Positions 4,887 to 35,710 are shown, counted from the stretch's first letter. The stretch: 64,000 nucleotides of DNA from Hormiphora californensis (GCA_020137815.1 CM035353.1:3782001-3846000); one strand, 5' to 3'. Program-made: numbers and translations. The notes: generated by a model not told the origin, from the sequence alone.

Positions 4887-5404
4887 TATAGGAACACTGC
4901 ACCTGGTAAACAACTGTACGTTAGAAGCAGTATCAATTGATATTGGACTGGGGCCGACTGACATTATTTATAGCAAATATAGCGTATTATATTATTTATA
5001 AAGGATATTATATTATTTTAGGATAGGAGGAAGATTCAGGAGGATGTATCTTAACCGGTTTCACGCGTGATCATGATTTGGGATCTTCCCAGGATTTGAG
5101 GACACGTGATAAGAAACAATGGGAATTGCTGAACGTATTCGAACACATTCCCATTCCCACATTCTATCAAATATTGAAGAGCCACTCTCGGATAACAAAA
5201 AGGCCAGTTCAAAAATAAGAAAATCGATATAATGATTTATACAGTAATGATTATAAAATTAAATTTGCAACCCTTCAGCACCATCGAGATGCAAAATTAA
5301 CGGAACTGAACCCGGAAATATTGATTCTTCTAGAAATAATAATTGAAGAGGAAAACATGAACCGGTTCGAGTATTTCCATGTACCACATTGAAAAGGAAA
5401 ATTT

Positions 5405-6034: not shown

Positions 6035-6126
6035 CGACGCGAGTAATATTATAGCAATCCTCGTAGTATAATTATTTTACAGCTAAATTAATTGATACTA
6101 GAGCGGAGTCGCTGAGTTTGTTCTTA

Positions 6127-6486
6127 CCCTGCTGGAATAGAATCGTTCAATATACTCAATATAAACGCGATCTAGCAGGCTAATTGTTCAATAATTGATT
6201 GGATATTGAGGTGCTTGCGCGATTTATTGTTCAATTTCACGTCAATATACCTCAATAAGACCACGATATATCGAGGACAATAGAACACATGGGAATAATT
6301 GAACAATAAATCGCTCGGAAACCTCAATTATTGAACAATACCGCAATCGTGGTTTTATTGAGGTACATCGAGGTAAAATTGAACAATAAATCGCGCAAGA
6401 ACCTCAATATCCAATCAATTATTGAACAATATGAGTGCTAAATCGCAGTCATATTGAGGATATTGAACAATTCTATTCCGGCAGGG
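6127..6486. mobile_element. 360-bp MITE with TA target duplication
   Basis: TA|CCCTGCTGGAATAGAAT...ATTCTATTCCGGCAGGG|TA; empty site gagtttgttct-TA-gaagtagggg at ~7250-7270; internal ATTGAACAAT repeats. Confidence 0.93.
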
Positions 6487-6668
6487 TAGAAGTAGGGGAC
6501 GTAGGGTCGCCCTACTGAGAGACAATTAATAATTCGAGTTAGGTCCAGAGACAGAAGGGGAGGGGAGCGGTGTGATTATTTCGGGGGGAGGTTTGACTAG
6601 TTATTTTAATTCAAATCGTATAATTAGTTTGAGACTAACCCGAACCCCGCCTCCCCCACGAGGTAACG

Positions 6669-7170
6669 ATGAACAACGTCGACGATATTTTAACAATCCA
6701 GAATGAGGAACAGCTTCCAGAACTCCCGGTGGAGGCGATCCTGGAGAGGCCCCCAACTGGGGGCACCACGGTGGAAACTGCAGCTGTGGTGAACACCACT
6801 ACTTCATCCATCACCGGCGGCCAGGAGGCCGTATTAAGGTACAAGTTTACATACTCATTCGGGGGGGACTGGGAGGCTTTCTGCACGAGGTTCGAGGATT
6901 TCCTGGAGGCACAGGGAATCCCCGAACAGAGGCATTTCAAGTGCATCCTTATGTACCTGGATGACAAATCATATGGGAGGGTACGAACAGCCACCTTCCC
7001 AAAGGAAGTGTACAAGGACGAGGACGACAAGTCGTATGTCGTCCTGGCAAAAGCCAGGAAATTCTTGGGGGGGGGGGGCTGCTAGACCCTGCACAGGCGG
7101 TACTCGCGCCGGTAAAATTGAGGCTGATCCGTCAGGGTAAGACGGAATCAGTCCTCGATTTTGGGATCAG
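6669..7170 (+). pseudogene. Gag-like ORF remnant, copy 2
   Basis: 138-aa ORF MNNVDDIL...GDWEAFCTRFEDF...; continues after a poly-G frameshift into LDPAQAVLAPVKLRLIRQGKTESVLDF; truncated at ~7170. Confidence 0.65.
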
Positions 7171-7431
7171 CGACGCGAGTAATATTATAGCAATCCTCGT
7201 AGTATAATTATTTTACAGCTAAATTAATTGATACTAGAGCGGAGTCGCTGAGTTTGTTCTTAGAAGTAGGGGACGTAGGGTCGCCCTACTGAGAGACAAT
7301 TAATAATTCGAGTTAGGTCCAGAGACAGAAGGGGAGGGGAGCGGTGTGACTATTTCGGGGGAAGGTTTGTCTAGTTATTTTAATTCAGATCATTTAATTA
7401 GTTTGATAACTAACCCGAACCCCGTTTCCCC

Positions 7432-8045
7432 CATGAGGTACACGATGAACAACACAAACATCGAAGATATATTGCTCATCCAGAATGAGGAGCAGATACC
7501 TGATCTCCCGGAGGAGGCGATCCTGGCGAGGCCCCCAACTGGGGGCACCACGGTGGAAACTGCAGCTGTGGTGAACACCGCTACTCCATCTATCACTACC
7601 GGCGGCCAGGAGGCCGTATTAAGGTACAAATTTACGTACACGTTCGGGGGGACTGGGAGGCATTCTGTACCAGGTTCGAGGATTTCCTGGAGGCCCAGGG
7701 AATCCCCGATCAGAGGCACTTTAAGTGCATATAACTAATGTACCTCGACGACAAGTCCTACGGGAGGGTGCGCACAGCCACGTTCCCGAAGGAAGTGTAC
7801 AAGGATGAAAACGACAAGTCGTATGTCGTCCTGGCAAAAGCCAGAAATGAGAAAATTCATGGGGGCTGCTAGACCCTACACAGGCGGTACCCGCGCCGGT
7901 AAAATTGAGGCTGATCCGTCAGGGAAAAACGGAATCAGTTCTCGATTTTGGGATCAGGGTGGCGAATTTCGGGGTGAAAGCAATTGGAAACGGCTTCGAT
8001 TGTGACGAAAACGTCATTTACGCGTTCACCACGGGGCTAGATGAT
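7432..8045 (+). pseudogene. Gag-like ORF remnant, copy 3 (longest, several frameshifts)
   Basis: Same peptide blocks through ...DENVIYAFTTGLDD. Confidence 0.65.
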
Positions 8046-10528
8046 TGGAACCGGATCCGCCAGCCTAAAAGCCACAGACGTACTTGACCGCCTTTGCTTC
8101 TATCGACCTGATATCCAAAGACGTAGAGAATCAGAATCCTTCAAACCCGGGCCAAAAAAAGGGAAGCTAAAACACAGTGACAAGCTAGGGTTTTCGTGGA
8201 CGTCAGCCAAAGTGCTTAGGGAAGCCACAAGCCTACCTTACTACTTTCTCGGCAATTGACCCGGTATCCATGTCCCTAAAGATTTAGACGATCAATCCAG
8301 TCGCGGCCGTATATTTCAACCGAAATCTTAACAGTCCACGAGATGGGTCTTTACGAGAGGTCCTAAAGTAAAATTCGGTTTCACCTCATTTTTTGTGTGG
8401 AGGGAATTGTTGTATTGTGACATTGTTTTGTTAGTTAGGGAAACAGCAAAACTTCATCATGGCATTCTCAGCGAATATAGACACAGCGTCGATATATCTA
8501 AGAGTTTGGAAGAAAATATTAACATGAAGAGTAATATTAAATCCGTATTTTATATTATAGCAGAGTTATTGACGGTCAACTCCAAATGAGCCCGACGGAA
8601 ATGAGGACTCGCCAGGAGCACCCGACAACTAGTACCACCCAGAATGAAACGATCTGAGAGGAGCGGGGATTTGGTCCAACTGGATGAAACCGAGGACCCA
8701 GTAAGGAGGGCGGGAACGCAGCAAGAGGTGACAGCAGGAACACTACCCTTTCCTGGACCTGAGAGCAATATATTCAAAAGCGTTCGGAAGGGACTTAGCA
8801 GAAAATAATCCATATTTGGACCCCTGCAGTGTGAGACGGAAGACAGGATACAGGAAGAAGTTCGTCACATTTGCAGTAGAGGAGGTAGGAGGAGGACTGT
8901 TACCGCATTGCCGTGATAAAGAAGAAGGGAAGGACCCAGGAAAGGGATGTATGCACTCACCAGGGTGTCCTAACGCAGCTCAGGAACCACTGAGAAATAT
9001 TGAAGGTAATAGAAGAAAAATTATTATATTACAAAGGATAATTAATGGATGGGTAGTATACAAGGGAATAAGGGAATAAGAACCCATTTAGACAAAATAC
9101 GACAGTACGATCTAATTCTTCGATCGTTTGATTATATAGAATAACATTACCGGGACGCGGAGGAATGCGCCTGTTCAGAGTGGGATGGAGAGATTGGGAA
9201 ACGAGCAAGACTATTTAAGCCCAACTCTGGAGCAGGGCTAACAGTTCCCAACCACCTAGTTTAGTGACTGCAACCGCTCGCCCTCCCCCTCGCGGCTCGT
9301 TCCCCTTTTGAAGATGAGATGAGTATCGAGTAGGAAATGCGCTGAGAGTTTAAGTATTTATATGACGTATTGTTGTGAACCGTTCTCTCATTATTAGTTC
9401 ATACTCCCCTCATATGCGAGGTTACTCTGCTTACACTCTGGTATCGGTAGCATAGTTCTAGTTGGGCCCTGGTGATGAAGGCATGTGTACTGCCCCTATT
9501 CTAGGAGGGAATACCTAGAACCTAATTGCAATACAAATACCCGACCTCTATAGCTATTAGAGTCGCTGTAGCTGGTTGAGCTACGGGAGCTAGAGCTATC
9601 ATATCTGAGCTATATTCTAGTGGTATGGCATTGGGTAAGTACAATGAGTACTTACTTACTTACTTGACAATGAGTAGTACACCTCTAATTGCGTACACAT
9701 CAGTGACAAAAACGGAATGGGAACAATTTATTAGATTCAGAGCATGGACAGATAGGGAAAATTTTGAGAGCTATACAGCATCACCGCATCCAGAATTCCA
9801 GAAACATTGAGGTGATCGTGAAAGGGAAGTCAACATCACGACAAGGAACATCAGGGAGATAGAAAAATCGATCAATAAATTTCACAATCCGGCTATCATC
9901 GTTGGATTCCACATGGAATCACGAAAACAAATCTAGATGCGCCCAGAAAATTAAGGGAAGTAAGGATACAACCTTTCAGCACTACAGAATTACAGAAAGA
10001 AATGAATCCAGAAATTAGGGTTCTTTGTTGTGTATCCTTTTATGACATCGTCATAAAAGTGGAAAACATGTGGATATTTGAGAACCTCGGTTTCGCACAC
10101 TACCTCTCTCTTGTAGTTTTCGATTCATATGGGCGAGTATGGAGATTGAGGCGGAAATATTATAACAGATATAACTGCAACGTAAAGCTAGCCAAGATAT
10201 ATAACTGTTCGAGCATTTAATTCGGGCGTTTCTTTCGTGGTCCCGCAATCCGGACGACAAGACATTATATGGAGGAAAAAGTAAAACGTCACATGTCACA
10301 TCATATATTGGCAAAACTCCAAAGAGCGGCTACTAAAGAATTGCGAAAGCTTTGTGGGAAGACGTAAAACCGGTAAGAGACGCAGTAAGGAAGATATAAT
10401 ACTGATGGCTCGAGCTGTTTCTTGTCAGTATTTCGGCATTTCTCGACAGAAGCTGAGATTGCACATTAAGGTATCCGGGATCGGATAGTGTTATGTATAT
10501 GTCATACTACGATTATGTCATGTTTAAT

Positions 10529-12701
10529 GGTGACCTACAACTATGGCTCATGCAACTATGGCTCATAGAATCTATGAGCCATAGATGCATGCAACTATGG
10601 CTCATAGATTCTATGAGCCATAGATGCATACAACTATGGCTCATAGAAATGTGATCTGATTAGGTTCTATGAGCCAAAGCTAGTGAGAGTGAGAGGGACG
10701 TGAGTGACACGTGAGTGACACGTGAGTGACACGTGAGTGACACGTGAGTGACACATGAGAGATCGAATCATATAATATTGAATGAGCACAAATGTAAACG
10801 GTTTACATAATAATAAATCTAATATTACATAATTAAAATTACACTATCAGTTCATCTTGGATATAATGGTAAAAGGGGTCCTTCTTTGGACAGTTCATAG
10901 AGCTTTTCACGTGAATCAGCAGCTCCTTAACACGATGTGTATTCAAATCTATGATCGGGTAGGTACTAAACAGCCGCCTTGCATTATCACTATCAGGATC
11001 CACAGTAAAAAAACTCTCCAACAGGTCTGATTTTCGAGAAAGTAGTATAGGTAGGATGTTCCCAGAAATTGCCTGGCTAAAGTTTCTGATCTTTCACACT
11101 CTTCCAAAACCTCCCGGTATTCGTTGAACGTTGTAGTGTTGTTAGTGACGTCTATAACAATTATAGCCAGTGAATCCACTAACAAATTCTAATGAGCGGG
11201 ATGAATATGTGAATATCCATCCCCCTCACTGACACGATTCTGGGATGCTTCATTAGCAGAGTGAAACGATACGAGATACGAAACTTATGATTCGGGGGAG
11301 CTCATTAGCAGTGTGAGACGATGCGGTATGTGGAACATGATTCGGGGAAGCTTATTAAGGAGTGTTAGACGATATGAGACACGATTCGGAGACTGTTTTA
11401 TCGCTCTTTCTATCTATCTCTATCTATCTCTATCTCTTTTTGTCAATTATCTTGGACTTGAGAGTTGCCTACCCTTACTATAATGCGAGCTGACGCTACA
11501 CACTTGGTGAGTTTAGTGCCCTTATTTTTGGCAATGAGAGCCTATCGGCTCGGCCGCATTGTTTTTAGGAGGATATGTTATTTTAGATGGAATGCGTTGG
11601 GTTTTATTTATTTTCGAGTCTTGCCAAACAGACCAAATTCAAACCATTCCATCTAAAACAACAACATATCCCCCTAAAAATAACGGGGCTGGACAAAAAT
11701 AAGGGCACCAAAGTGTATAGCTTCTTCGCATTAGTATGGGTAGGAACTAGGTATCTCATCTGGTTCTCAAGATAATTGACAAAAAGAGATAGAGATAGAT
11801 AGAAAGAGCGATAAAACAGTCTCCGAATCGTGTCTCATATCGTCTAACACTCCTTAATAAGCTTCCCCGAATCATGTTCCACATACCGTATCGTCTCACA
11901 CTGCTAATGAGCTCCCCCGAATCATAAGTTTCGTATCTCGTATCGTTTCACTCTGCTAATGAAGCATCCCAGAATCGTGTCAGTGAGGGGGATGGATATG
12001 TGACACTGTCACATATTCATCCCGCTCATTAGAATTTGTTAGTGGATTCACTGGCTATAATTGTTATAGACGTCACTAACAACACTACAACGTTCAACGA
12101 GTACCGGGAGGTTTTGGAAGAGTGTGAAAGATCAGAAACTTTAGCCAGGCAATTTCTGGGAACATCCTACCTATACTACTTTCTCGAAAATCAGACCTGT
12201 TGGAGAGTTTTTTTACTGTGGATCCTGATAGTGATAATGCAAGGCGGCTGTTTAGTACCTACCAGATCACAGATCTGAATAAGCAGCTGCTGATTCACGT
12301 GAAAAGCTCTATGAACTGTCCAAAGAAGGACCCCTTTTACCATTATATCCAAGATGAACTGATAGTGTAATTTAATTATGTAATATTAGATTTATTATTA
12401 TGTAAATCGTTTACATTTGTGCTCATTCAATATTATATGATTCGATCTCTCACGTGTCACTCACGTGTCACTCACGTGTCACTCACGTGTCACTCACGTG
12501 TCACTCGCGTGTCACTCACGTGTCACTCACGTCCCTCTCACTCTCACTAGCTTTGGCTCATAGAACCTAATCAGATCACATTTCTATGAGCCATAGTTGT
12601 ATGCATCTATGGCTCATAGAATCTATGAGCCATAGTTGCATGCATCTATGGCTCATAGATTCTATGAGCCATAGTTGCATGAGCCATAGTTGTAGGTAAT
12701 C
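10529..12701. mobile_element. 2.17-kb foldback DNA transposon, MULE- or Merlin-like, 9-bp TSD
   Basis: TSD ATGTTTAAT at 10520-10528 and 12702-12710; empty site catactacgattatgtcatgtttaatgcgtgagcg at ~13651-13685; ~925-bp inverted arms; termini GGTGACCTAC/GTAGGTAATC. Confidence 0.92.
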
Positions 12702-13012
12702 ATGTTTAATGCGTGAGCGTTGAATTGTACTGATATGACACTTCTTGGTTTGGTACTACATTCATTTCAATTGGAGCCTGATTAAAAACCAATTGTTTGA
12801 TGACGGATCTCACTAAGACACAGATAAGTGAGCGCGTTGATCAGTTAATAAAGGACGATCTCAGATCAATGATTACAGGTTTTCTAAGTTTAAATCCCAA
12901 GACGCAAGAGCAGGTGGAGAGAACGTACTAAAGGTTCTTAAAGATAATTATATTCTTTAAAGTTGTCAAATACAGGGGATAAGAGGAGAGCTACTCACGC
13001 TTCTATTTTACA

Positions 13013-16853: not shown

Positions 16854-19189
16854 AATTTATAATTCAATTTTTCATAACTTTAACTAATTTCTAGGATTAA
16901 TAACTAATAATTCGATCTAGGTCCTTTGAAAACGTGTGAGCACACTGCACCAACGATTAGTTATTTTCATTGGAAGAAGTTTGACAAATCCATTTGCTAT
17001 CTGCTATCGAGTACCCTTGCAAACCAGCAGATCAGTATAATAACATGACTACCTCTTATCCCTTTGACGGCGAGAAGGATTGGCTCGATAGAATTGTCTA
17101 ATTTTTCGTTTATAAGTAGATGTTATCAACACAAAACGCCTCGAAAAGGAAATTTGTAATTCCGACATGTAGTTTTTGCTGGGCCCACTGTAGCATATAT
17201 GATACTATCGCCCGTAAGGGAATTCTAGTAACAAATCTAAATTGTACAAGTTTGTGGGTGTTATGGCATAAATTCATGCTTTCATGAGGTTTGTAGCTAC
17301 AAGCTCTACATTCGTGAACGGTTTTTACCGGGAAAAGAACCCAAATTAGAGATTTGTATCATATATGATACTATCGTCCAAAGGGTAAATTCTCCTAAAA
17401 CATACATAATTCGGGCTAGAAAAGGAGCTAAGAGACAAATGGGGGCACTAAAATGTGTAGAATCATCGCATTAGTGGGGGTAGAGCACATATTTAGGTCG
17501 CTATCTGGACCCCTAATTGAGATAATTGCATAATTAGATAATTATCTGTCCCGCGCATGCTAATTATTAATGAAACTTTGCTCTGGGAAGGAGTTATGAG
17601 ACAAATGGGGGCACTAAAATGTGTAGAATCATTACATTAGTGGGGGTAGAGCACATATTTAGGTCGCTATCTGGATCCATAATTGAGATAATTGGATAAT
17701 TAGCTAATTAGTTGCCCTGGAGCGCTAATAAATGAGACTTTGTGGAGTATCCAAGACAAGTGAGGGCACTAAAATGTGTAAAATCATCGCCTTAGCGGGG
17801 GTAGAGCACTTAGCTGAGTTTCTATTCCCACTCCTAATTGAGATAATTGGATAATTAGCTAATTGACGGTTGCACACCGTCCACTTTTCACCAAATCCCG
17901 TGGTTTCTAGGTAATCCTGAGCTCTTTTGTTCAATCTAAGGATCTTCTGACATCCCCTAATATCCCTAAACCCCTATAACCGTGTGTCCAAACAATAAAT
18001 ATGGGAAACTGTAGTACATTAGAGGTTGAACGTGTTGTAGGAGCAATAGGATATAAAAGTTCTATAGGATTGTGGTTGGATCTTGGATGTATGAGAGGTC
18101 TAGGATGGAGCAAGAGGGTTCTAAAGAGCTGAAGGCAGTGTCTAGGGTTGTATCGAGTGCTATACTATTGTGTAAAACGAGTCATAGGTGATACAAATGG
18201 GGTTAGGGGTTGTCAGAAGATCCTTAGATTGAACAAAAGAGCTCAGGATTACCTAGAAACCACGGGATTTGGTGAAAAGTGGACGGTGTGCAACCGTCAA
18301 TTAGCTAATTATCCAATTATCTCAATTAGGAGTGGGAATAGAAACTCAGCTAAGTGCTCTACCCCCGCTAAGGCGATGATTTTACACATTTTAGTGCCCT
18401 CACTTGTCTCATAACTCCTTCCCAGAGCAAAGTTTCATGAATAATTAGTATGCGCGGGACAGATAATTAGCTAATTATCCAATTATCTCAATTAGGGATC
18501 CAGATAGCGACCTAAATATGTGCTCTACCCCCACTAATGCGATGATTCTACACATTTTAGTGCCCCCATTTGTCTCTTAGCTCCTTTTCTAGCCCGAATT
18601 ATGTATGTTTTAGGAGAATTTACCCTTAGGACGATAGTATCATATATGATACAAATCTCTAATTTGGGTTCTTTTCCTGGTAAAAACCGTTCACGATTGT
18701 AGAACTTGTAGCTACATACCACATGAAAGCATAAATTTATGCCATAGCACCCACAAACTTGTACAATTTAGATTTGTTACTAGAATTCCCTTACGGGCGA
18801 TAGTATCATATATGATACGGCGCCTTAAATGTTAACCCTTTGACGGCGACAGAGCATATATGCTACAGTTTATTCTAGGCGGCCTGGAAGTCCTTATGTT
18901 TTATCTAGGTGGCCCATATTTTGTCACAAGCTAGTTTTAGGGATTATGAACCTAAAACCACGTCCAGATCAGCTCAGAAAATCAAGAAAAAATTTTATAG
19001 CCCTTCTAAGGAGGCTAATTTCGGCCTTTTTTTAAAAACATTTCTCATTTTTTTGTTTTTTGGGGGCACAACTAATCCTTTGAAGGAATAAAAGTGCTCG
19101 TCATAACCGACCGAATGCAAAAAGCCGCATCAAAAAATATTGAAAATTGAATGAGTTATTAACATTTAAGGCGCCGTATCATATATGAT

Positions 19190-20042
19190 CAGTAAACATA
19201 CACACACATTGAGCAGGCTCAATTTAGCTAATCACTGGCGGGGTATGGGGCTGAGGCACTGGCAAGATATAGTGGGATCGCTACTTCCCACATCTCATGT
19301 GTATTCTGAATTGCAAATTTAAAAGGGTTGGGTGGTCTCTGGGACCGTCTAGACTTCGCTCCCTGTTAACATGCCAGAAACCAGGGGTCCATCTAGCTCT
19401 CATACGCATTCGGCCATTACTTTCCCAACCAGTAGTACTGGATTTCACATCCTCTTATACTCGCAATTCAGGATAGAAACAATCCTTGTGTTCTAATAGC
19501 GATCACCTCGTATATCTTGCACTGACCCGTACTACCACACATTTAGTGTGCTTGAAATGGCACTACGGGAATATCTCCACTACACGGCCAGCACTGTGGG
19601 TAGACAGCCACCATTCAAGTTCCATCACGGTTGCTAACCGGACAATACATTAGTAGAGGGGGTTGGAACACCAGGAGGAAGATCAGTAAACATACACACA
19701 CATTGAGCAGGCTCAATTTAGCTAATCACTGGCGGGGTATGGGGCTGAGGCACTGGCAAGATATAGTGGGATCGCTACTTCCCACATCTCATGTGTATTC
19801 TGAATTGCAAATTTAAAAGGGTTGGGTGGTCTCTGGGACCGTCTAGACTTCGCTCCCTGTTAACATGCCAGAAACCAGGGGTCCATCTAGCTCTCATACG
19901 CATTCGGCCATTACTTTCCCAACCAGTAGTACTGGATTTCACATCCTCTTATACTCGCAATTCAGGATAGAAACAATCCTTGTGTTCTAATAGCGATCAC
20001 CTCGTATATCTTGCACTGACCCGTACTACCACACATTTAGTG
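19190..20042 (-). repeat. Inverted segment (~1.7 units) of the 494-bp array
   Basis: Reverse complement of the main unit; the same 61-aa ORF appears on the + strand here; junction shares TG at 20041-20042. Confidence 0.95.
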
Positions 20043-23000
20043 GTGTTCCAACCCCCTCTACTAATGTATTGTCCGGTTAGCAACCGTGATGGAACTTGAA
20101 TGGTGGCTGTCTACCCACAGTGCTGGCCGTGTAGTGGAGATATTCCCGTAGTGCCATTTCAAGCACACTAAATGTGTGGTAGTACGGGTCAGTGCAAGAT
20201 ATACGAGGTGATCGCTATTAGAACACAAGGATTGTTTCTATCCTGAATTGCGAGTATAAGAGGATGTGAAATCCAGTACTACTGGTTGGGAAAGTAATGG
20301 CCGAATGCGTATGAGAGCTAGATGGACCCCTGGTTTCTGGCATGTTAACAGGGAGCGAAGTCTAGACGGTCCCAGAGACCACCCAACCCTTTTAAATTTG
20401 CAATTCAGAATACACATGAGATGTGGGAAGTAGCGATCCCACTATATCTTGCCAGTGCCTCAGCCCCATACCCCGCCAGTGATTAGCTAAATTGAGCCTG
20501 CTCAATGTGTGTGTATGTTTACTGATCTTCCTCCTGGTGTTCCAACCCCCTCTACTAATGTATTGTCCGGTTAGCAACCGTGATGGAACTTGAATGGTGG
20601 CTGTCTACCCACAGTGCTGGCCGTGTAGTGGAGATATTCCCGTAGTGCCATTTCAAGCACACTAAATGTGTGGTAGTACGGGTCAGTGCAAGATATACGA
20701 GGTGATCGCTATTAGAACACAAGGATTGTTTCTATCCTGAATTGCGAGTATAAGAGGATGTGAAATCCAGTACTACTGGTTGGGAAAGTAATGGCCGAAT
20801 GCGTATGAGAGCTAGATGGACCCCTGGTTTCTGGCATGTTAACAGGGAGCGAAGTCTAGACGGTCCCAGAGACCACCCAACCCTTTTAAATTTGCAATTC
20901 AGAATACACATGAGATGTGGGAAGTAGCGATCCCACTATATCTTGCCAGTGCCTCAGCCCCATACCCCGCCAGTGATTAGCTAAATTGAGCCTGCTCAAT
21001 GTGTGTGTATGTTTACTGATCTTCCTCCTGGTGTTCCAACCCCCTCTACTAATGTATTGTCCGGTTAGCAACCGTGATGGAACTTGAATGGTGGCTGTCT
21101 ACCCACAGTGCTGGCCGTGTAGTGGAGATATTCCCGTAGTGCCATTTCAAGCACACTAAATGTGTGGTAGTACGGGTCAGTGCAAGATATACGAGGTGAT
21201 CGCTATTAGAACACAAGGATTGTTTCTATCCTGAATTGCGAGTATAAGAGGATGTGAAATCCAGTACTACTGGTTGGGAAAGTAATGGCCGAATGCGTAT
21301 GAGAGCTAGATGGACCCCTGGTTTCTGGCATGTTAACAGGGAGCGAAGTCTAGACGGTCCCAGAGACCACCCAACCCTTTTAAATTTGCAATTCAGAATA
21401 CACATGAGATGTGGGAAGTAGCGATCCCACTATATCTTGCCAGTGCCTCAGCCCCATACCCCGCCAGTGATTAGCTAAATTGAGCCTGCTCAATGTGTGT
21501 GTATGTTTACTGATCTTCCTCCTGGTGTTCCAACCCCCTCTACTAATGTATTGTCCGGTTAGCAACCGTGATGGAACTTGAATGGTGGCTGTCTACCCAC
21601 AGTGCTGGCCGTGTAGTGGAGATATTCCCGTAGTGCCATTTCAAGCACACTAAATGTGTGGTAGTACGGGTCAGTGCAAGATATACGAGGTGATCGCTAT
21701 TAGAACACAAGGATTGTTTCTATCCTGAATTGCGAGTATAAGAGGATGTGAAATCCAGTACTACTGGTTGGGAAAGTAATGGCCGAATGCGTATGAGAGC
21801 TAGATGGACCCCTGGTTTCTGGCATGTTAACAGGGAGCGAAGTCTAGACGGTCCCAGAGACCACCCAACCCTTTTAAATTTGCAATTCAGAATACACATG
21901 AGATGTGGGAAGTAGCGATCCCACTATATCTTGCCAGTGCCTCAGCCCCATACCCCGCCAGTGATTAGCTAAATTGAGCCTGCTCAATGTGTGTGTATGT
22001 TTACTGATCTTCCTCCTGGTGTTCCAACCCCCTCTACTAATGTATTGTCCGGTTAGCAACCGTGATGGAACTTGAATGGTGGCTGTCTACCCACAGTGCT
22101 GGCCGTGTAGTGGAGATATTCCCGTAGTGCCATTTCAAGCACACTAAATGTGTGGTAGTACGGGTCAGTGCAAGATATACGAGGTGATCGCTATTAGAAC
22201 ACAAGGATTGTTTCTATCCTGAATTGCGAGTATAAGAGGATGTGAAATCCAGTACTACTGGTTGGGAAAGTAATGGCCGAATGCGTATGAGAGCTAGATG
22301 GACCCCTGGTTTCTGGCATGTTAACAGGGAGCGAAGTCTAGACGGTCCCAGAGACCACCCAACCCTTTTAAATTTGCAATTCAGAATACACATGAGATGT
22401 GGGAAGTAGCGATCCCACTATATCTTGCCAGTGCCTCAGCCCCATACCCCGCCAGTGATTAGCTAAATTGAGCCTGCTCAATGTGTGTGTATGTTTACTG
22501 ATCTTCCTCCTGGTGTTCCAACCCCCTCTACTAATGTATTGTCCGGTTAGCAACCGTGATGGAACTTGAATGGTGGCTGTCTACCCACAGTGCTGGCCGT
22601 GTAGTGGAGATATTCCCGTAGTGCCATTTCAAGCACACTAAATGTGTGGTAGTACGGGTCAGTGCAAGATATACGAGGTGATCGCTATTAGAACACAAGG
22701 ATTGTTTCTATCCTGAATTGCGAGTATAAGAGGATGTGAAATCCAGTACTACTGGTTGGGAAAGTAATGGCCGAATGCGTATGAGAGCTAGATGGACCCC
22801 TGGTTTCTGGCATGTTAACAGGGAGCGAAGTCTAGACGGTCCCAGAGACCACCCAACCCTTTTAAATTTGCAATTCAGAATACACATGAGATGTGGGAAG
22901 TAGCGATCCCACTATATCTTGCCAGTGCCTCAGCCCCATACCCCGCCAGTGATTAGCTAAATTGAGCCTGCTCAATGTGTGTGTATGTTTACTGATCTTC

Positions 23001-23708
23001 CTCCTGGTGTTCCAACCCCCTCTACTAATGTATTGTCCGGTTAGCAACCGTGATGGAACTTGAATGGTGGCTGTCTACCCACAGTGCTGGCCGTGTAGTG
23101 GAGATATTCCCGTAGTGCCATTTCAAGCACACTAAATGTGTGGTAGTACGGGTCAGTGCAAGATATACGAGGTGATCGCTATTAGAACACAAGGATTGTT
23201 TCTATCCTGAATTGCGAGTATAAGAGGATGTGAAATCCAGTACTACTGGTTGGGAAAGTAATGGCCGAATGCGTATGAGAGCTAGATGGACCCCTGGTTT
23301 CTGGCATGTTAACAGGGAGCGAAGTCTAGACGGTCCCAGAGACCACCCAACCCTTTTAAATTTGCAATTCAGAATACACATGAGATGTGGGAAGTAGCGA
23401 TCCCACTATATCTTGCCAGTGCCTCAGCCCCATACCCCGCCAGTGATTAGCTAAATTGAGCCTGCTCAATGTGTGTGTATGTTTACTGATCTTCCTCCTG
23501 GTGTTCCAACCCCCTCTACTAATGTATTGTCCGGTTAGCAACCGTGATGGAACTTGAATGGTGGCTGTCTACCCACAGTGCTGGCCGTGTAGTGGAGATA
23601 TTCCCGTAGTGCCATTTCAAGCACACTAAATGTGTGGTAGTACGGGTCAGTGCAAGATATACGAGGTGATCGCTATTAGAACACAAGGATTGTTTCTATC
23701 CTGAATTG
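20041..23708 (+). repeat. 494-bp tandem array, ~7.4 apparently identical units
   Basis: ORF track recurs every 494 bp (20392, 20886...23356) with identical translation. Confidence 0.98.
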
Positions 23709-26174
23709 GTTAAGAGGATGAAATCCGTACTCACTGCTTGGGAATATGCACTGAAAGCTTGCGTATGGAAGATGGACCCATGGTGCTTCTGCCAGTTAAC
23801 AGGGGTGAATTCAGCGTCCCAGACCCCCAACCCTTTGATTTGCAATTCAGAATGACACTGAATGTGGGAAGTACGATAACACCTTATCTTGCCAGTAGCT
23901 ACCCATACCCCGCATGCTGATAGCTAAATTGAGCCTGCTATAGTGTGATGTTTCTGATTCCTACCGGTGTTCAACCCCACTACTAATGTATGTCCGGTAG
24001 CAACCGGATGGAACTTGATGGGGGTTGTCTACCCAGGCCAAAAACTTGGCTTAATAAGTTCATCGTCGAGTAGCCCATTAAATGATTGTGTCCGATCATT
24101 TTTTTCCATCAGTGTATTTGGGTTGGGCACTTTTGTTTACGGTGCAAAAATTTCCTAAATGTTGCACAATTGGTAAGACTTCTTGTTCTGATACGCATTA
24201 GTGGAATACTTTGATTAAGTGACGATTACGGTTACTCCCGATGGTTTAAGAGATGTAAGGGCAACGTCCAGTGGAGCCCACCCTTTTATTAAAGATGATT
24301 GGAGTCATTTCTTTCCCCCCATAAGGTGGTCCTTGGTTTATGTGGTGACCACTCCTGTTGGTAACCTGTTTCATTTAGAGTCAAGTTGGAGACACTACTT
24401 TAAAATTCTAAGCTAAGCCACTTGGTGATTAATAGTCTAATTGGGTTTTAAAACCCTTTTTAAACGACTATGGACCTTTTTTGGTAATAGCAAAGCTATG
24501 GACCCTTGCATTTTCCCGGTATCCTTAAATCTCATGTTCTCTGTGGTTAGAAGTTATCCTTAATGTCTTTCCATCCGGGTTAATGTAATGTTTCTATTGG
24601 GTCCAAAACCCTGGTGTTGGTCTCCGGTGCTATAAGCACCCATCCGGGGAAACAGATTTAATAGTTTATATCTCGGAAGTACCCCATTAATGCTAAGTTT
24701 AACCCGTGAAACTTTGAAATGCCAATCTGAGTTAGCTTTTCCCTTATGCGTTAAATTTTCAATGCCTCAATAAGTGGGTCGTTTTGGGGGCTCTGTTCTA
24801 CCCATAATTTATACCATTTGGTTATAATTTGGGTTTAACACGATTTTAGCCTGATGGGTAGGGTGATGAAGGTGGGACGAACGAATTTAACTGTTGGAAT
24901 AAGGGGAAGTCGTAGTCAGGTCCATACAATTTATACAGGATAGACATAGAATTGACTCTGGCAACCCTGTGGATTAGCCGCCACGATTAGTTACCCGTGT
25001 GGTAATTCTCTGCATTGACTTAAATGTGTATCGGGTCAACTGAGTGAGTGTCGCTTTGAAAGTTGTGCCTATCTGTGCGATAAAGTGATCCGATGTTGGG
25101 ATTAATGGGATTAAGAAAGTGTGCCGATCGGCATAGATGCGAGTCTGGTTCAAGCACCTACCTTGGAGTTGGACAGTCATGATTGGGATAACCCAACATG
25201 GTTGCGCCTTTCCAATATGCATGAGGAATGACCGTCAATTATTCTATATCCATAGATCCAATAGCTTCATGTGTCCGTTATCTCGTGATGGCTTGAGGTG
25301 CCGCATCTTTGGCAGTGGGCGTATCGTGTGCCTTTAGCCCTTAGTTGAACCTGTCAATGGTATACGGTGAGTTAGATTAAGGATGTCTATCTATTTGGGT
25401 ATGAGAGGATGTGAAATTAGTCCTACTGGTGGGTATGCTAATCGATGTTTTGGATATGGACCGGTTTTGGGTGAACGGGAGCGAAGTTGGAGGTAAGCCA
25501 CCACCGTTTAAATTGCACTTGATACGTGAGTGTGGGAACGTTCTCCGTATACTGCGTTCTCGCCCATCCCCCCTGTTAGAATGAGCCTACTCATGAGTTG
25601 GTATGTAGTATTTCCTCTGGGTTCTACCCTTGAAAAGCTATTGCGTTGACCTATGAACTTGTGGGCTGTCTTCCCAGTGCTGCCGTGCTAGTAGATTTCC
25701 CGTAGCCATTTCAGCACATAATGGTGTACTAGGGTTGAAATCGATATGGTAGTCCTTCAATCCATAATGTAGATGTGATCGTATAGGTGAAATCAGTGAT
25801 GTTTAATATTGCCGAGGTTACCAATTGGTGGATGGTATTGGATGAACTATGGAAGCCGATCTAAGATAACGACCCTTTAAATTGATCAATACGAGATGTG
25901 GGAATAGCGATCCCACATTTTGGCGTGGTCAGCCCCTCACTGGTTAGCTAAATTAGCTCTAATTGTTTGATGTTACTGTCTGTCGGTTAATGGTCTCATG
26001 TGGTTGATGATCTCCTCATTGCCCCTTCAAGTTGTTGGTGGGTTAGTGAGTATTCCCGGCCGTTACGATAAGTTGTAGTCGTTGGCAAGAATGGGTGGAT
26101 GTAGTGCCAAGATTGTTTTGGCTTGCATAAAGGATGGTTTATAATCAGTCACTGTTGAGTAAGGGAATAATCGA
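23709..26174 (+). repeat. Heavily degenerate core of the array (~5 unit lengths), possibly unpolished long-read sequence
   Basis: Indel-riddled unit remnants at ~23709-24030, ~25390-25730 and ~25870-25980; phase shift across it is 6x494 minus 69 bp. Confidence 0.75.
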
Positions 26175-29100
26175 AGCTAGATGGACCCCTGGTTTCTGGC
26201 ATGTTAACAGGGAGCGAAGTCTAGACGGTCCCAGAGACCACCCAACCCTTTTAAATTTGCAATTCAGAATACACATGAGATGTGGGAAGTAGCGATCCCA
26301 CTATATCTTGCCAGTGCCTCAGCCCCATACCCCGCCAGTGATTAGCTAAATTGAGCCTGCTCAATGTGTGTGTATGTTTACTGATCTTCCTCCTGGTGTT
26401 CCAACCCCCTCTACTAATGTATTGTCCGGTTAGCAACCGTGATGGAACTTGAATGGTGGCTGTCTACCCACAGTGCTGGCCGTGTAGTGGAGATATTCCC
26501 GTAGTGCCATTTCAAGCACACTAAATGTGTGGTAGTACGGGTCAGTGCAAGATATACGAGGTGATCGCTATTAGAACACAAGGATTGTTTCTATCCTGAA
26601 TTGCGAGTATAAGAGGATGTGAAATCCAGTACTACTGGTTGGGAAAGTAATGGCCGAATGCGTATGAGAGCTAGATGGACCCCTGGTTTCTGGCATGTTA
26701 ACAGGGAGCGAAGTCTAGACGGTCCCAGAGACCACCCAACCCTTTTAAATTTGCAATTCAGAATACACATGAGATGTGGGAAGTAGCGATCCCACTATAT
26801 CTTGCCAGTGCCTCAGCCCCATACCCCGCCAGTGATTAGCTAAATTGAGCCTGCTCAATGTGTGTGTATGTTTACTGATCTTCCTCCTGGTGTTCCAACC
26901 CCCTCTACTAATGTATTGTCCGGTTAGCAACCGTGATGGAACTTGAATGGTGGCTGTCTACCCACAGTGCTGGCCGTGTAGTGGAGATATTCCCGTAGTG
27001 CCATTTCAAGCACACTAAATGTGTGGTAGTACGGGTCAGTGCAAGATATACGAGGTGATCGCTATTAGAACACAAGGATTGTTTCTATCCTGAATTGCGA
27101 GTATAAGAGGATGTGAAATCCAGTACTACTGGTTGGGAAAGTAATGGCCGAATGCGTATGAGAGCTAGATGGACCCCTGGTTTCTGGCATGTTAACAGGG
27201 AGCGAAGTCTAGACGGTCCCAGAGACCACCCAACCCTTTTAAATTTGCAATTCAGAATACACATGAGATGTGGGAAGTAGCGATCCCACTATATCTTGCC
27301 AGTGCCTCAGCCCCATACCCCGCCAGTGATTAGCTAAATTGAGCCTGCTCAATGTGTGTGTATGTTTACTGATCTTCCTCCTGGTGTTCCAACCCCCTCT
27401 ACTAATGTATTGTCCGGTTAGCAACCGTGATGGAACTTGAATGGTGGCTGTCTACCCACAGTGCTGGCCGTGTAGTGGAGATATTCCCGTAGTGCCATTT
27501 CAAGCACACTAAATGTGTGGTAGTACGGGTCAGTGCAAGATATACGAGGTGATCGCTATTAGAACACAAGGATTGTTTCTATCCTGAATTGCGAGTATAA
27601 GAGGATGTGAAATCCAGTACTACTGGTTGGGAAAGTAATGGCCGAATGCGTATGAGAGCTAGATGGACCCCTGGTTTCTGGCATGTTAACAGGGAGCGAA
27701 GTCTAGACGGTCCCAGAGACCACCCAACCCTTTTAAATTTGCAATTCAGAATACACATGAGATGTGGGAAGTAGCGATCCCACTATATCTTGCCAGTGCC
27801 TCAGCCCCATACCCCGCCAGTGATTAGCTAAATTGAGCCTGCTCAATGTGTGTGTATGTTTACTGATCTTCCTCCTGGTGTTCCAACCCCCTCTACTAAT
27901 GTATTGTCCGGTTAGCAACCGTGATGGAACTTGAATGGTGGCTGTCTACCCACAGTGCTGGCCGTGTAGTGGAGATATTCCCGTAGTGCCATTTCAAGCA
28001 CACTAAATGTGTGGTAGTACGGGTCAGTGCAAGATATACGAGGTGATCGCTATTAGAACACAAGGATTGTTTCTATCCTGAATTGCGAGTATAAGAGGAT
28101 GTGAAATCCAGTACTACTGGTTGGGAAAGTAATGGCCGAATGCGTATGAGAGCTAGATGGACCCCTGGTTTCTGGCATGTTAACAGGGAGCGAAGTCTAG
28201 ACGGTCCCAGAGACCACCCAACCCTTTTAAATTTGCAATTCAGAATACACATGAGATGTGGGAAGTAGCGATCCCACTATATCTTGCCAGTGCCTCAGCC
28301 CCATACCCCGCCAGTGATTAGCTAAATTGAGCCTGCTCAATGTGTGTGTATGTTTACTGATCTTCCTCCTGGTGTTCCAACCCCCTCTACTAATGTATTG
28401 TCCGGTTAGCAACCGTGATGGAACTTGAATGGTGGCTGTCTACCCACAGTGCTGGCCGTGTAGTGGAGATATTCCCGTAGTGCCATTTCAAGCACACTAA
28501 ATGTGTGGTAGTACGGGTCAGTGCAAGATATACGAGGTGATCGCTATTAGAACACAAGGATTGTTTCTATCCTGAATTGCGAGTATAAGAGGATGTGAAA
28601 TCCAGTACTACTGGTTGGGAAAGTAATGGCCGAATGCGTATGAGAGCTAGATGGACCCCTGGTTTCTGGCATGTTAACAGGGAGCGAAGTCTAGACGGTC
28701 CCAGAGACCACCCAACCCTTTTAAATTTGCAATTCAGAATACACATGAGATGTGGGAAGTAGCGATCCCACTATATCTTGCCAGTGCCTCAGCCCCATAC
28801 CCCGCCAGTGATTAGCTAAATTGAGCCTGCTCAATGTGTGTGTATGTTTACTGATCTTCCTCCTGGTGTTCCAACCCCCTCTACTAATGTATTGTCCGGT
28901 TAGCAACCGTGATGGAACTTGAATGGTGGCTGTCTACCCACAGTGCTGGCCGTGTAGTGGAGATATTCCCGTAGTGCCATTTCAAGCACACTAAATGTGT
29001 GGTAGTACGGGTCAGTGCAAGATATACGAGGTGATCGCTATTAGAACACAAGGATTGTTTCTATCCTGAATTGCGAGTATAAGAGGATGTGAAATCCAGT

Positions 29101-29875
29101 ACTACTGGTTGGGAAAGTAATGGCCGAATGCGTATGAGAGCTAGATGGACCCCTGGTTTCTGGCATGTTAACAGGGAGCGAAGTCTAGACGGTCCCAGAG
29201 ACCACCCAACCCTTTTAAATTTGCAATTCAGAATACACATGAGATGTGGGAAGTAGCGATCCCACTATATCTTGCCAGTGCCTCAGCCCCATACCCCGCC
29301 AGTGATTAGCTAAATTGAGCCTGCTCAATGTGTGTGTATGTTTACTGATCTTCCTCCTGGTGTTCCAACCCCCTCTACTAATGTATTGTCCGGTTAGCAA
29401 CCGTGATGGAACTTGAATGGTGGCTGTCTACCCACAGTGCTGGCCGTGTAGTGGAGATATTCCCGTAGTGCCATTTCAAGCACACTAAATGTGTGGTAGT
29501 ACGGGTCAGTGCAAGATATACGAGGTGATCGCTATTAGAACACAAGGATTGTTTCTATCCTGAATTGCGAGTATAAGAGGATGTGAAATCCAGTACTACT
29601 GGTTGGGAAAGTAATGGCCGAATGCGTATGAGAGCTAGATGGACCCCTGGTTTCTGGCATGTTAACAGGGAGCGAAGTCTAGACGGTCCCAGAGACCACC
29701 CAACCCTTTTAAATTTGCAATTCAGAATACACATGAGATGTGGGAAGTAGCGATCCCACTATATCTTGCCAGTGCCTCAGCCCCATACCCCGCCAGTGAT
29801 TAGCTAAATTGAGCCTGCTCAATGTGTGTGTATGTTTACTGATCTTCCTCCTGGTGTTCCAACCCCCTCTACTAA
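26175..29875 (+). repeat. 494-bp tandem array, ~7.5 apparently identical units
   Basis: ORF track recurs every 494 bp (26251...29215); ends at ...ctactaa before the duplicated TATCATATATGAT. Confidence 0.98.
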
Positions 29876-32727
29876 TATCATATATGATACTATCGCCCGT
29901 AAGGGAATTCTAGTAACAAATCTAAATTGTACAAGTTTGTGGGTGCTATGGCATAAATTTATGCTTTCATGTGGTATTTAGCTACAAGTTCTACAATCGT
30001 GAACGGTTTTTACCAGGAAAAGAACCCAAATTAGAGATTTGTATCATATATGATACTATCGTCCTAAGGGTAAATTCTCCTAAAACATACATAATTCGGG
30101 CTAGAAAAGGAGCTAAGAGACAAATCAGGGCACTAAAATGTGTAGAATTATCGCATTAGTGGGGGTAGAGCACATATTTAGGTCGCTATCTGGACCCCTA
30201 ATTGAGATAATTGGATAATTAGCTAATTATCTGTCCCGCGCATACTAATTATTCATGAAACTTTGCTCTGGGAAGGAGTTATGAGACAAATGGGGGCACT
30301 AAAATGTGTAGAATCATCAAATTAGTGGGGGTAGAGCACATATTTAGGTCGCTATCTGGATCCATAATTGAGATAATTGGATAATTAGCTAATTAGTTGC
30401 TCTGGAGCGCTAATAAATGAGACTAGGCGGAGTATACAAGACAAGTGAGGGCACTAAAATGTGTAAAATCATCGCCTTAGCGGGGGTAGAGCACATAGCT
30501 GAGTTTCTATTCCCACTTCTAATTGAGATAATTGGATAATTAGCTAATTGACGGTTGCACACCGTCCACTTTTCACCAAATCCCGTGGTTTCTAGGTAAT
30601 CCTGAGCTCTTTTGCTCAATCTAAGGATCTTCTGACAACCCCTAACCCCATTTGTATCACCTATGACTCGTTTTACACAATAGTATAGCACTCGATACAA
30701 CCCTAGACACTGCCTTCAGCTCTTTAGAACCCTCTTGCTCCATCCTAGACCTCTCATACATCCAAGATCCAACTACAATCCTATAGAATTTTTATATCCT
30801 ATTGCTCCTACAACACGTTCAACCTCTAATGTACTACAGTTTCCCATATTTATTGTTTGGACACACGGTTATAGGGGTTTAGGGATATTAGGGGATGTCA
30901 GAAGATCCTTAGATTGAACAAAAGAGCTCAGGATTACCTAGAAACCACGGGATTTGGTGAAAAGTGGACGGTGTGCAACCGTCAATTAGCTAATTATCCA
31001 ATTATCTCATTTAGGAGTTGGAATAGAAACTCAGCTATGTGCTCTACCTCCACTAAGGCGATGATTTTACACATTTTAGTGCCCCTACTTGTCTTGGATA
31101 CTCCACAAAGTCTCATTTATTAGCGCTCCAGGGCAACTAATTAGCTAATTATCCAATTATCTCAATTATGGATCCAGATAGCGACCTAAATATGTGCTCT
31201 ACCCCCACTAATTTGATGATTCTACACATTTTAGTGCCCCCATTTGTCTCATAACTCCTTCCCAGAGCAAAGTTTCATGAATAATTAGTATGCGCGGGAC
31301 AGATAATTAGCTAATTATCCAATTATCTCAATTAGGGGTCCAGATAGCGACCTAAATATGTGCTCTACCCCCACTAATGCGATGATTCTACACATTTTAG
31401 TGCCCTGATTTGTCTCTTAGCTCCTTTTCTAGCCCGAATTATGTATGTTTTAGGAGAATTTACCCTTAGGACGATAGTATCATATATGATACAAATCTCT
31501 AATTTGGGTTCTTTTCCTGGTAAAAACCGTTCACGAATGTAGAGCTTGTAGCTACAAACCTCATGAAAGCATGAATTTATGCCATAACACCCACAAACTT
31601 GTACAATTTAGATTTGTTACTAGAATTCCCTTACGGGCGATAGTATCATATATGCTACAGTGGGCCCAGCAAAAACTACATGTCGGAATTACAAATTTCC
31701 TTTTCGAGGCGTTTTGTGTTGATAACATCTACTTATAAACGAAAAATTAGACAATTCTATCGAGCCAATCCTTCTCGCCGTCAAAGGGTTAATAACTCAT
31801 TCAATTTTCAATATTTTTTGATGCGGCTTTTTGCATTCGGTCGGTTATAACGAGCACTTTTATTCCTTCAAAGGATTAGTTGTGCCCCTAAAAAACAAAA
31901 AAATGAGAAATGTTTTTTAAAAAAGGCCGAAATTAGCCTCCTTAGAAGGGCTATAAAATTTTTTTCTTGATTTTCTGAGCTGATCTGGACGTGGTTTTAG
32001 GTTCATAATCCCTAAAACTAGCTTGTGACAAAATATGGGCCACCTAGATAAAACATAAGGACTTCCAGGCCGCCTAGAATAAACTGTAGCATATATGCTC
32101 TGTCGCCGTCAAAGGGTTATCCAGTAAGTTGCAATTGCTATCAACTGAGGATGTTATCTGAGATGCCCATGCCCACTGACATAGTTAGTTAGCTTCTGTT
32201 GCTACTTGGAACTGATGATTCTTAGAACACTACAAAAGCTGATAATAAAGAAAGGACTAATTTGATAAGGAGTGGTTCGTCAAACAACAAGTCCAAAAAG
32301 TTTATACTTAAAATGAGCAAGATTTTTATGGCCAGATCTTGGCAGGTAAGAAATAATTGCTATGAATTGAGGCTGTTATATGTTATCTGAGATGTCCAAT
32401 AACATGTGGAAATGTTGATACTGAGTTAACTGAATATAATTAATAAAGAAGCAGTGATATAATTACACTAGTGCTAGACACGAACTAGGCTTTCCCTATC
32501 CGGGAAGAGCGGAGATCAAGGGAGAAGTGGACCCCAAGCGGTTCAAGGATCAAACCAACCTGGTGACCCCGACCCCGGCAGAGCGGATGGAGCTGATTCC
32601 TGTCGAACCCTGAACTTGCGAACCCCGGTAAGAAAGCAGAGGAGTTTCAGGAGGAGGGACGGAATTCGAGGGAAAAGGGATAAGATATCAAACAATTGGG
32701 TAATCCTTATACGACCTATTTTTATAG

Positions 32728-34026: not shown

Positions 34027-34668
34027 GTCATGAATCATCCAATCAGATATCATTATACGCATACTTAGATGTTATTTATATCATAAATATAAAGTAAAAA
34101 CGATCAAAAGATCAAAAGTATATGGTAATTAACAGTTTTAATGATATACAATATAGGCTGCAGGCGAAGGAGAAGACGAGTCCTACCAAATGCTATGAGC
34201 CAGGTATGGCACGATACTACGTGGAATGTTTGCTGGCAGGCTGTGTTATATGCTGTCTGAAAACTGTCACCTCTAACGTATAGTACCTAATCATGTAAAA
34301 ATTTACGGCATCATGTTCAAAATGATAATATGTATATAAAACGTTTTAGTTAATCTAACTTGGACATTTGCACAGTAGTGTAATATTTTTATAGCTTATA
34401 CATTTATTAAGTTAGAAATATAAAGTTTACTTGTGTATATATAGTATAACAAATTGGTTGGCTAAAATATCGTAGCAGATATAGTTCCGTGACTCTTTAT
34501 GATGGAACCCCAGATCTATATCATATCATAACCGGAAAAACGAAATCCAGGATTACATCAAGTACTGAGGCCTCATTACAGGCGAAGAATTTGACTAATA
34601 TTTAATACTGACTAAGGAAGTGTATAAGGGACGGCTCTGCCACAAGATACATGGAGGCGAAATCAAGC

Positions 34669-35435
34669 TTGTTCCAGAACCAACCTTGGTAGAGGGAAAG
34701 GATGTCACCTGCTACATCGATACTCCATTCAGTTCGACGTTTTTATGCCATAGCCAAGAGGTGGAACTATGTGTGCAAACTAGTGCCAGTAAGGCTAAAA
34801 ACTTCAAGTCACACGAATCGAGCATAGGTAGCGCTATTATTACTACTGAGAGTAGAAGGCAGAGAAGAGGAAAGACAACTTGTTCCAGAACCAACCTTGG
34901 TAGAGGGAAAGGATGTAACCTGCTACATCGATACTCCATTCAGTTCGACGTTTTTATGCCATAGCCAAGAGGTGGAACTATGTGTGCAAACTAGTGCCAG
35001 TAAGGCTAAAAACTTCAAGTCACACGAATCGAGCATAGGTAGCGCTATTATTACTACTGAGAGTAGAAGGCAGAGAAGAGGAAAGACAACTTGTTCCAGA
35101 ACCAACCTTGGTAGAGGGAAAGGATGTAACCTGCTACATCGATACTCCATTCAGTTCGACGTTTTTATGCCATAGCCAAGAGGTGGAACTATGTGTGCAA
35201 ACTAGTGCCAGTAAGGCTAAAAACTTCAAGTCACACGAATCGAGCATAGGTAGCGCTATTATTACTACTGAGAGTAGAAGGCAGAGAAGAGGAAAGACAA
35301 CTTGTTCCAGAACCAACCTTGGCAGAGGGAAAGGATGTGACCTGCTACATCGATACTCCATTCAGTTCGACGTTTTTATGCCATAGCCAAGAGGTGGAAT
35401 TATGCGTGCAAACTAGTGCAAGCAAGGCCAAAAAC
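34669..35435 (+). repeat. 211-bp tandem repeat, ~3.6 units
   Basis: cttgttccagaaccaaccttggtagagggaaagg recurs at 211-bp spacing (ORFs at 34712, 34923, 35134). Confidence 0.95.
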
Positions 35436-35710
35436 TAGTTAATTAAAATCGAAGGTCTAATGCCAACCAGGAACCTAAAGGACGTCATTCATCCAAGTAC
35501 TCACCATACTGAGGAGCAGCGAGGAGCAGCCCAATAACATGTGGAAGTGTTGATACGGAGTTTACTGAATATAATTAATAAAGAAGCAGTGATACAATTA
35601 CACTTGCTAGACACGAACTAGTTTTAAACAGAAGTCCGGGAATCTCTTTACCATGTATTGGATACTGCGGATAACAGAGGTTTGAACAGCCTTCGTGACA
35701 GATTAGATAC

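Follow-up and report, generated by a model that had tools for sequence, protein, structure and literature searches.

Introduction

Penelope-like elements (PLEs) leave a recognisable footprint at the sites of their insertion. In published accounts, an inverted 5'-truncated copy lies beside a tandem, and one end carries a tail of 30-40 bp (PMC8557442); Pen2a of A. vaga shows a target-site duplication (TSD) of 9 bp, a 31-bp tail and an adjacent inverted copy, with head-to-head being the commonest arrangement (PMC3846280). In vitro, the purified PLE protein of the anole cleaves AT-rich DNA on both strands and extends them, starting at two internal RNA sites in an AC-rich stem-loop that bound the tail; hammerhead cleavage is reported as dispensable for insertion in this assay (PMC11167929). 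Naiad PLEs are likewise described without canonical hammerheads (PMC8557442), and PLE insertions reported from Chlamydomonas are mostly short, with a median of 128 bp (PMC9977147). Animal retrozymes have been argued to be non-autonomous PLE derivatives (bioRxiv 10.64898/2026.07.22.740005). Here we analyse a stretch of 64,000 nucleotides from Hormiphora californensis (GCA_020137815.1 CM035353.1:3782001-3846000; the window, with positions counted from its first letter), which holds an array of a 494-nt repeat unit. An initial annotation had taken the unit for an endogenised circular RNA of viroid or retrozyme type. Our analysis points to a retrozyme-like, non-autonomous PLE parasite lacking a known ribozyme, probably copied from a small circular RNA.

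Results

A single 10.7-kb insertion built from a 494-nt unit

One insertion of 10.7 kb (about 19190-29876) is built from this unit, as a tandem array of about 20 monomers and, head-to-head with it, an inverted arm of 856 nt. Across the insertion, 8,226 nt agree with a single unit at every position, and 14 whole copies are exact. The inverted arm (19187-20042, - strand) is 5'-truncated, comprises 1.7 units (unit position 126 to 487 of the next copy) at 100% identity, and meets the array through a 2-nt TG microhomology. The array opens with a perfect block of 7.4 units (20041-23708, +), continues into a noisy middle (23709-26174, +) with copies of about 82% and about 65% identity and many deletions, and closes with a second perfect block of 7.5 units (26175-29876, +) that ends at unit position 24-25. 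The noisy middle is likely unpolished long-read sequence, and because we read it in this way the copy number of about 20 is uncertain. A stretch of about 1 kb within the array (about 24040-25000) bears no detectable resemblance to the unit or any other part of the window and lacks a long open reading frame (ORF); it is noise or, less probably, a foreign piece. A weak, AT-rich likeness to the unit was also seen in a 35-nt match at 39110.

The insertion is flanked by a TSD reading TATCATATATGAT, whose left copy (19177-19189) shares its last 3 nt and whose right copy (29876-29888) shares its first T with the element, so that its length is 9-13 bp depending on how these microhomologies are counted. 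The target site itself is palindromic. The left outer end lies at unit position 484-487 and the right one at position 24-25 of the next copy, 31-35 nt apart; the corresponding C-rich tail of 31-35 nt (unit 488 to 25; 29845-29876, +) is found at the right end and is absent from the inverted left end. Relative to the left start site, the long arm begins 7-9 nt further downstream, and neither poly(A) nor long terminal repeat (LTR)-type ends were found at the insertion. Both arms face outward in the + sense, as expected if both DNA ends primed the copying of + strand RNA.

The receiving sequence is a copy of a non-coding foldback DNA transposon, which we take to be piggyBac-like, with CCCTTTGACGGCGA ends and TTAA on both sides (18836-31788, +). 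The empty site lies at 18805-18816, within an outer copy of the same transposon that faces the opposite way (17060-32116, -; 96% identical, bordered by TTAT at either end). There, the two flanks of the insertion meet at one TATCATATATGAT, of which the filled site has two. The target site is likewise single in a third copy, near 51066. The insertion is recent and single, and its origin by reverse transcription, implicit in the initial annotation, is supported by the TSD, the empty site, the inverted arm and the tail. Regarding the transposon itself, three copies of this 2.1-2.5-kb non-coding element lie at 17060-32116 and 50718-53206, one nested in another at a TTAA, and their internal foldback arms of 770-880 nt are built of subrepeats of about 163 nt.

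The footprint resembles that of Penelope-like elements

Three traits of the PLE footprint are present at this locus, namely an inverted 5'-truncated copy head-to-head with the main body (19187-20042), a tail in the range of 30-40 nt at one end only (31-35 nt, at one locus), and a short TSD in an AT-rich target without poly(A). By our own arithmetic, chance would give an end offset of 30-40 nt in about 2% of cases and would place the start of a long arm no more than 10 nt from the second site in about 4%. The insertion thus shares with endonuclease-bearing PLEs, as described for Pen2a (PMC3846280), anole Poseidon (PMC11167929) and Naiads (PMC8557442), the head-to-head inverted 5'-truncated copy, the 30-40-nt tail, a TSD of about 9-13 bp, the AT-rich target and the tandem build, and the Naiads are alike also in lacking canonical hammerheads. 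Unlike these elements, the unit has no ORF, reverse transcriptase (RT) or GIY-YIG domain, and about 20 complete identical units take the place of partial tandems. We consider retro-insertion by PLE-type machinery probable.

Twin priming of a repeat transcript by machinery of the long interspersed nuclear element (LINE) type would leave a similar scar. Its hallmarks are a TSD, an inversion with a small deletion and a 2-nt microhomology, and all of them are present. The insertion carries neither poly(A) nor a simple-repeat 3' tail, and an offset such as the 31-35 nt between its ends characterises PLEs and is described as unseen in LINE-type insertion (PMC8557442); we regard twin priming as very improbable.

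The array could also have arisen by amplification at the DNA level, as a satellite or by rolling-circle DNA, or be an assembly artefact in the form of a fold-back chimera or collapsed polishing. The 2.5-kb noisy middle with its unalignable 1 kb, the foldback-rich window and the palindromic target site would fit such an origin, and the junctions were read from the assembly. Against this, the two flanks, put together, restore the empty site exactly as well as a single transposon copy bounded by TTAA, a tail offset would not arise from an artefact, and the unit occurs in independent samples with covarying stems (see below), which makes this explanation very improbable. Two further origins were rejected from the ends: a TRIM/LTR-type tandem, in view of the missing LTR-type ends, and a Helitron, in view of the TSD.

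The unit occurs in DNA and RNA libraries

We found the unit in 20 of the 24 sequencing runs listed. Runs labelled 'DNA?', a kind guessed by the tool, come from two samples of the source organism, from a second organism and from marine samples; besides these there are six RNA runs from five studies. Contigs were examined for four of the six RNA runs with the unit (X15, X19, X8 and X20). A 524-nt contig of X15 (494 + 30 nt; depth 28.5, about 97% identical) runs from the end of the unit into its start, and the same joint is present in X19 at a depth of 4.3. End-to-start contigs thus occur in two of the four runs, in a form that carries no strand or end information. In addition, X15 and X19 contain a variant of greater divergence (contigs of 440 nt and 119 nt), which would close a cycle of about 499 nt. 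Judged from these contigs, the data suggest that the unit may be transcribed and circular.

A separate observation concerns X8, in which a 151-nt RNA contig (contig 11, on 20041-20177; depth 2.4) switches strand from 20177 to 20115, probably through fold-back during library preparation. Scanning metagenome contigs with a 16-mer yielded 119 loci, and BLAST of the unit on all of them gave two matches of 26-27 nt (E 0.006 and 0.02), which we take as chance. A 29-mer had no match in viral contigs and a 23-mer none in prokaryote genomes.

The + strand of the unit is structured

The unit (20041-20534) has a GC content of 47% and is non-coding, as initially annotated. Every frame of the endless repeat has stops, and the longest stop-free stretch corresponds to 57 aa on the + and 70 aa on the - strand. 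We take the + strand as the RNA sense because of the head-to-head geometry, the better fold of this strand and the changes on it that keep G-U pairs.

The complementary segments named in the initial annotation were all located. Segments 20194-203/20443-52 form 10 of 10 pairs, 20210-19/20429-38 nine Watson-Crick (WC) pairs and one G-U pair, and GGTTGGG/CCCAACC (20284-90/20382-88) seven of seven pairs, while the 25-bp helix 20239-63/20388-412 has exactly 20 WC pairs, 3 G-U pairs and 2 mismatches. The segments 20182-88/20465-71 are present as well but form six of seven pairs, with one mismatch, and are not part of the minimum free energy (MFE) fold, which pairs 20183-88 with 20145-50 instead (p 0.94); the first of two natural variants described below (variant 1) breaks one pair in either alternative. 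The proposed four-way junction is weak, as the 25-bp helix shares positions with its TAGAA/TTCTA hairpin and each of the side hairpins loses one pair in variant 2.

Stability was expressed as z-scores of the unit against dinucleotide shuffles. The linear fold gave z -2.54 for the + strand (0 of 100 shuffles as good) and z -1.81 for the - strand (5 of 100). Folded as circles, as had been proposed, both polarities were modestly better than shuffles, with z -2.39 (+; 2 of 150 as good) and z -1.72 (-; 9 of 150), and the paired fraction of the circular fold was 0.63, equal to 0.63 in shuffles. The signal is concentrated in a long imperfect rod with a branched head (20190-20457, +; z -5.7, 60 shuffles), a significant structural domain with main helices at p 0.87-0.99; the remainder reached z -1.9 (unit 1-149) and z -1.5 (unit 418-30). 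The stems and a strong central rod are therefore real, but over its full length the unit exceeds shuffles in stability by a modest margin only: 'structured' holds for it, and 'viroid-like' is overstated.

Natural variants support selection on RNA structure

Natural variants of the unit diverge by about 3-15%, and two of them were scored, with 12 differences in variant 1 and 20 in variant 2. In the set of variant 2, six differences come from a 14-letter loose end placed ungapped; differences near the ends of pieces are hidden, and 13 of 19 are visible in the main piece. Four low-depth differences of X19 were omitted from the test, one of which, G20250C (depth 3.5), breaks a strong pair.

Variant 2 changes both partners of three rod pairs while keeping the pairing (20244/20407, 20250/20401 and 20276/20282). 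Of the 16 MFE pairs covered, these make up 3, where the null mean is 0.10 (P about 1e-4); among the initially annotated pairs, 2 of the 17 covered show double changes (P 0.004). A fourth double change, 20264/20272, lies in a hairpin noticed post hoc. In variant 1, positions 20330/20351 of the CCCTG/CAGGG stem change together (1 of 96 initially annotated pairs, P 0.026), and all three changes within the 25-bp helix keep or gain a pair (G-U to G-C, G-C to G-U and C-A to C-G). The selection on RNA structure proposed earlier is thus supported by compensatory and G-U-type changes in natural variants, and we regard it as highly probable for the + strand. The least constrained module of the unit is 20098-20181, where variant 2 has 82-86 unlike letters.

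These data also bear on whether the unit is an autonomously replicating viroid-like circle (RNA-to-RNA, perhaps infectious) that a retroelement captured into the genome. Distinct variants occur together in seawater RNA libraries, one of them self-closing, and many putative circles without a recognised ribozyme are described from metatranscriptomes (bioRxiv 10.1101/2022.07.19.500677), which the unit resembles in size, in lacking an ORF and in its end-to-start contig. Unlike those circles as described there, it has genomic arrays, pairing no higher than shuffles and no ribozyme in either polarity. A viroid would be a highly paired rod or branched circle without a DNA form, whereas here 63% of positions are paired, as in shuffles, the minus strand folds weakly and genomic arrays exist. 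Moreover, the unit is present in 'DNA?' runs (kind guessed) of two organisms and several marine samples, and its ends match the geometry of PLE start sites, suggesting adaptation to PLE machinery. A captured replicon is very unlikely. From the initial annotation we retain the structure, the origin by reverse transcription and the missing hammerhead; the evidence favours a home-grown PLE parasite over a captured viroid.

No known ribozyme was found in the unit

Neither strand of the unit contains a CUGANGA hammerhead core, in agreement with the initial annotation. Relaxed hammerhead descriptors with covariant cores and up to 2 mismatches found none in the unit and matched shuffles in 1 of 30 and 14 of 30 cases; two near-core words are present without hammerhead geometry. 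The proposed Rfam check, run on 19100-21600, gave no match to a ribozyme or any other family at E up to 10, and ARAGORN found no gene in the whole window. Likeness to twister, hairpin, pistol and hatchet ribozymes was considered and dropped, since Rfam gave none.

One conserved module, CUAGAU-GGA-C-CCCUG...CAGGG-AGC-GAA-GUCUAG (20318-20365, +), was examined further. Its GGGAGCGAAG is preserved in variant 2, and it includes the jointly changing pair 20330/20351. It is the one + strand candidate of a scan for ribozymes like that of hepatitis delta virus (HDV), for which 2 of 60 mononucleotide shuffles also match. As in described HDV-like ribozymes (PMC6326823; minimal forms PMC10879173), CGAA (20356-59) precedes a 6-bp P2-like helix, agreeing with the J4/2 pattern C-R-R-A, and a P1-like partner starting with G lies upstream (at 20120 by scan or 20151 by eye), agreeing with G1-Y. 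The HDV-like descriptor fixes a U and a C in L3 as well as the GG of P1.1 (PMC6326823). We rejected a canonical HDV-like ribozyme because L3, which reads CCCCUGG, has neither the conserved U nor the conserved C, and GU stands after P1 in place of the P1.1 GG; P4 is missing and P3 is weak.

The same module is the sole match on either strand to a Kt-7-type kink-turn pattern, chosen post hoc, with 3 of 500 shuffles as good. As a sequence pattern, it has a 3-nt bulge and G-A and A-G pairs between C and NC helices, with favourable A:G at 3b:3n and G:U at 4b:4n and an unfavourable G:C at -1b:-1n. A G:C at this position is reported to have abolished folding in the Kt-7 background (PMC8191799), and unlike Kt-7, the C-helix of the candidate needs a bulged C to fit the covariation.

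Self-cleavage by a new motif in the unit is unlikely on this evidence. Slightly more unlikely still is a fuller version, in which the unit would be an abundant animal circular RNA, self-processed by an undescribed class of motif centred on 20318-20365 and copied round and round by a PLE; if true, it would establish a class of retrozymes defined by a new ribozyme.

Other features of the window

The window is unusually dense in foldbacks. Five further near-perfect ones lie at 3601-4890, 10527-12703, 35711-36864, 38456-40156 and 47993-49713, several with spacers of 234-255 nt and tandem subrepeats in their arms. A Pfam scan of 13 window ORFs found ShK domains in one and nothing else. This long ORF (44423-47151, +) has four ShK-like stretches (Pfam E 5e-18). 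A coding repeat of 21 nt, in about 41 copies, interrupts it, and the upstream stretch has two homologues with ShK domains. Three related short ORF pieces at 5393-7738 give the impression of decayed retroelement gag fragments, with no Pfam match. Duplicated blocks with tandem units of 196-211 nt occur at 34599-35436 and 41300-41901, and paired like blocks about 1,965 nt apart at 57139-57537 and 59104-59502.

Discussion

With moderate confidence, we favour a recent insertion of a structured 494-nt repeat, made by a PLE reverse transcriptase and nuclease from a small circular RNA. Granted both insertion of the PLE type and selection on RNA structure, a circular template appears somewhat more probable than not. 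Arrays would first be transcribed from the + strand, and the multimers would be cut to monomers and closed by a route other than a hammerhead, either through host nuclease and ligase or through an unrecognised RNA motif, for which 20318-20365 would be the first place to look. A PLE protein would then bind near the C-rich unit positions 488-25, cut the two strands of AT-rich DNA at positions staggered by 9-13 bp and copy from both DNA ends, beginning at two fixed start sites about 32 nt apart. After about 20 rounds, one copy would stop 7-9 nt before reaching the second start site; the other would make 1.7 rounds, and the 2-nt microhomology would join the two.

A PLE-type insertion might instead have used a long linear read-through transcript of an array, or have begun short and grown by unequal crossing-over, without circle or cleavage; the fold would then serve PLE-protein binding or RNA stability, as in a satellite derived from a pseudo-LTR (pLTR). 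Consistent with this, no ribozyme was found in the unit, the anole PLE inserts in vitro without hammerhead cleavage, the Naiads have no canonical hammerheads, and local amplification of pLTR ends has been proposed (bioRxiv 10.64898/2026.07.22.740005); nor do contigs separate a ring from a tandem. A linear template would, however, require a transcript of at least 10.7 kb, copied almost fully from a homogeneous array, whereas the Chlamydomonas insertions cited above are mostly short, and crossing-over would require a later expansion with 0 mismatches in 8,226 nt, compared with about 3-15% between natural variants. We consider these linear routes possible but doubtful.

Several points weigh against our favoured reading, that of a PLE-made insertion from a circular RNA. 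No autonomous PLE was found in the window: the unit has no ORF, and neither RT nor GIY-YIG was detected in the 13 window ORFs scanned. This insertion is the only one observed, and the fixed start sites rest on a single locus; it was analysed in assembly sequence, and the identity of its copies may stem from polishing or later unequal crossing-over. A tandem DNA array yields the same closed contig as a ring, and the signal in RNA libraries may come from DNA carry-over. The RNA runs X8 and X20 cover 19 of 30 and 10 of 30 bins at a depth of about 2, and DNA run X7 has 52% of the unit's words while two RNA runs of its sample have next to none. As to the fold, the covariation is based on two variants and does not fix the entire structure: variant 1 has no double change across 156 MFE pairs, variant 2 breaks two adjacent pairs of the 25-bp helix, and pair-breaking changes are no rarer than the null in any set.

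Among described elements, metazoan non-LTR retrozymes (PMC7229834; bioRxiv 10.64898/2026.07.22.740005; PMC7761336) come close. As described in these sources, they too are tandem non-coding repeats with a GC content under 50%, units within 51-972 bp, a TSD of more than 4 bp (here 9-13 bp with an empty site), no LTR-type ends and self-paired RNA, and their proposed mobilisation by PLEs through RNA circles is the one we propose for the 494-nt unit. Unlike it, each of their units carries a type I hammerhead, the defining feature, and because this test failed we do not file the unit as a non-LTR retrozyme. Further marks of such retrozymes are abundant monomeric RNA in linear and circular form and self-cleavage in vitro; here, two of the four RNA runs examined gave end-to-start contigs, and two other RNA runs had next to none of the unit. 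The accounts of retrozyme arrays compared here give no inverted arm with a tail, whereas this insertion has both. No hammerhead-free element of this kind was found in the literature searched (subscription papers, Repbase entries and supplements aside).

Retrozymes have been found via hammerhead searches, and a hammerhead-free relative would be invisible to such screens. At this locus it is a footprint, and not co-occurrence, that ties a retrozyme-like repeat to PLE enzymes. The locus offers a defined 494-nt substrate with natural covarying variants: if a dimer transcript cuts itself, it would contain a new ribozyme; otherwise monomers would arise by another route or not be needed. With a mismatch-free copy of 20 rounds at hand, reverse transcription round a small RNA circle becomes testable.

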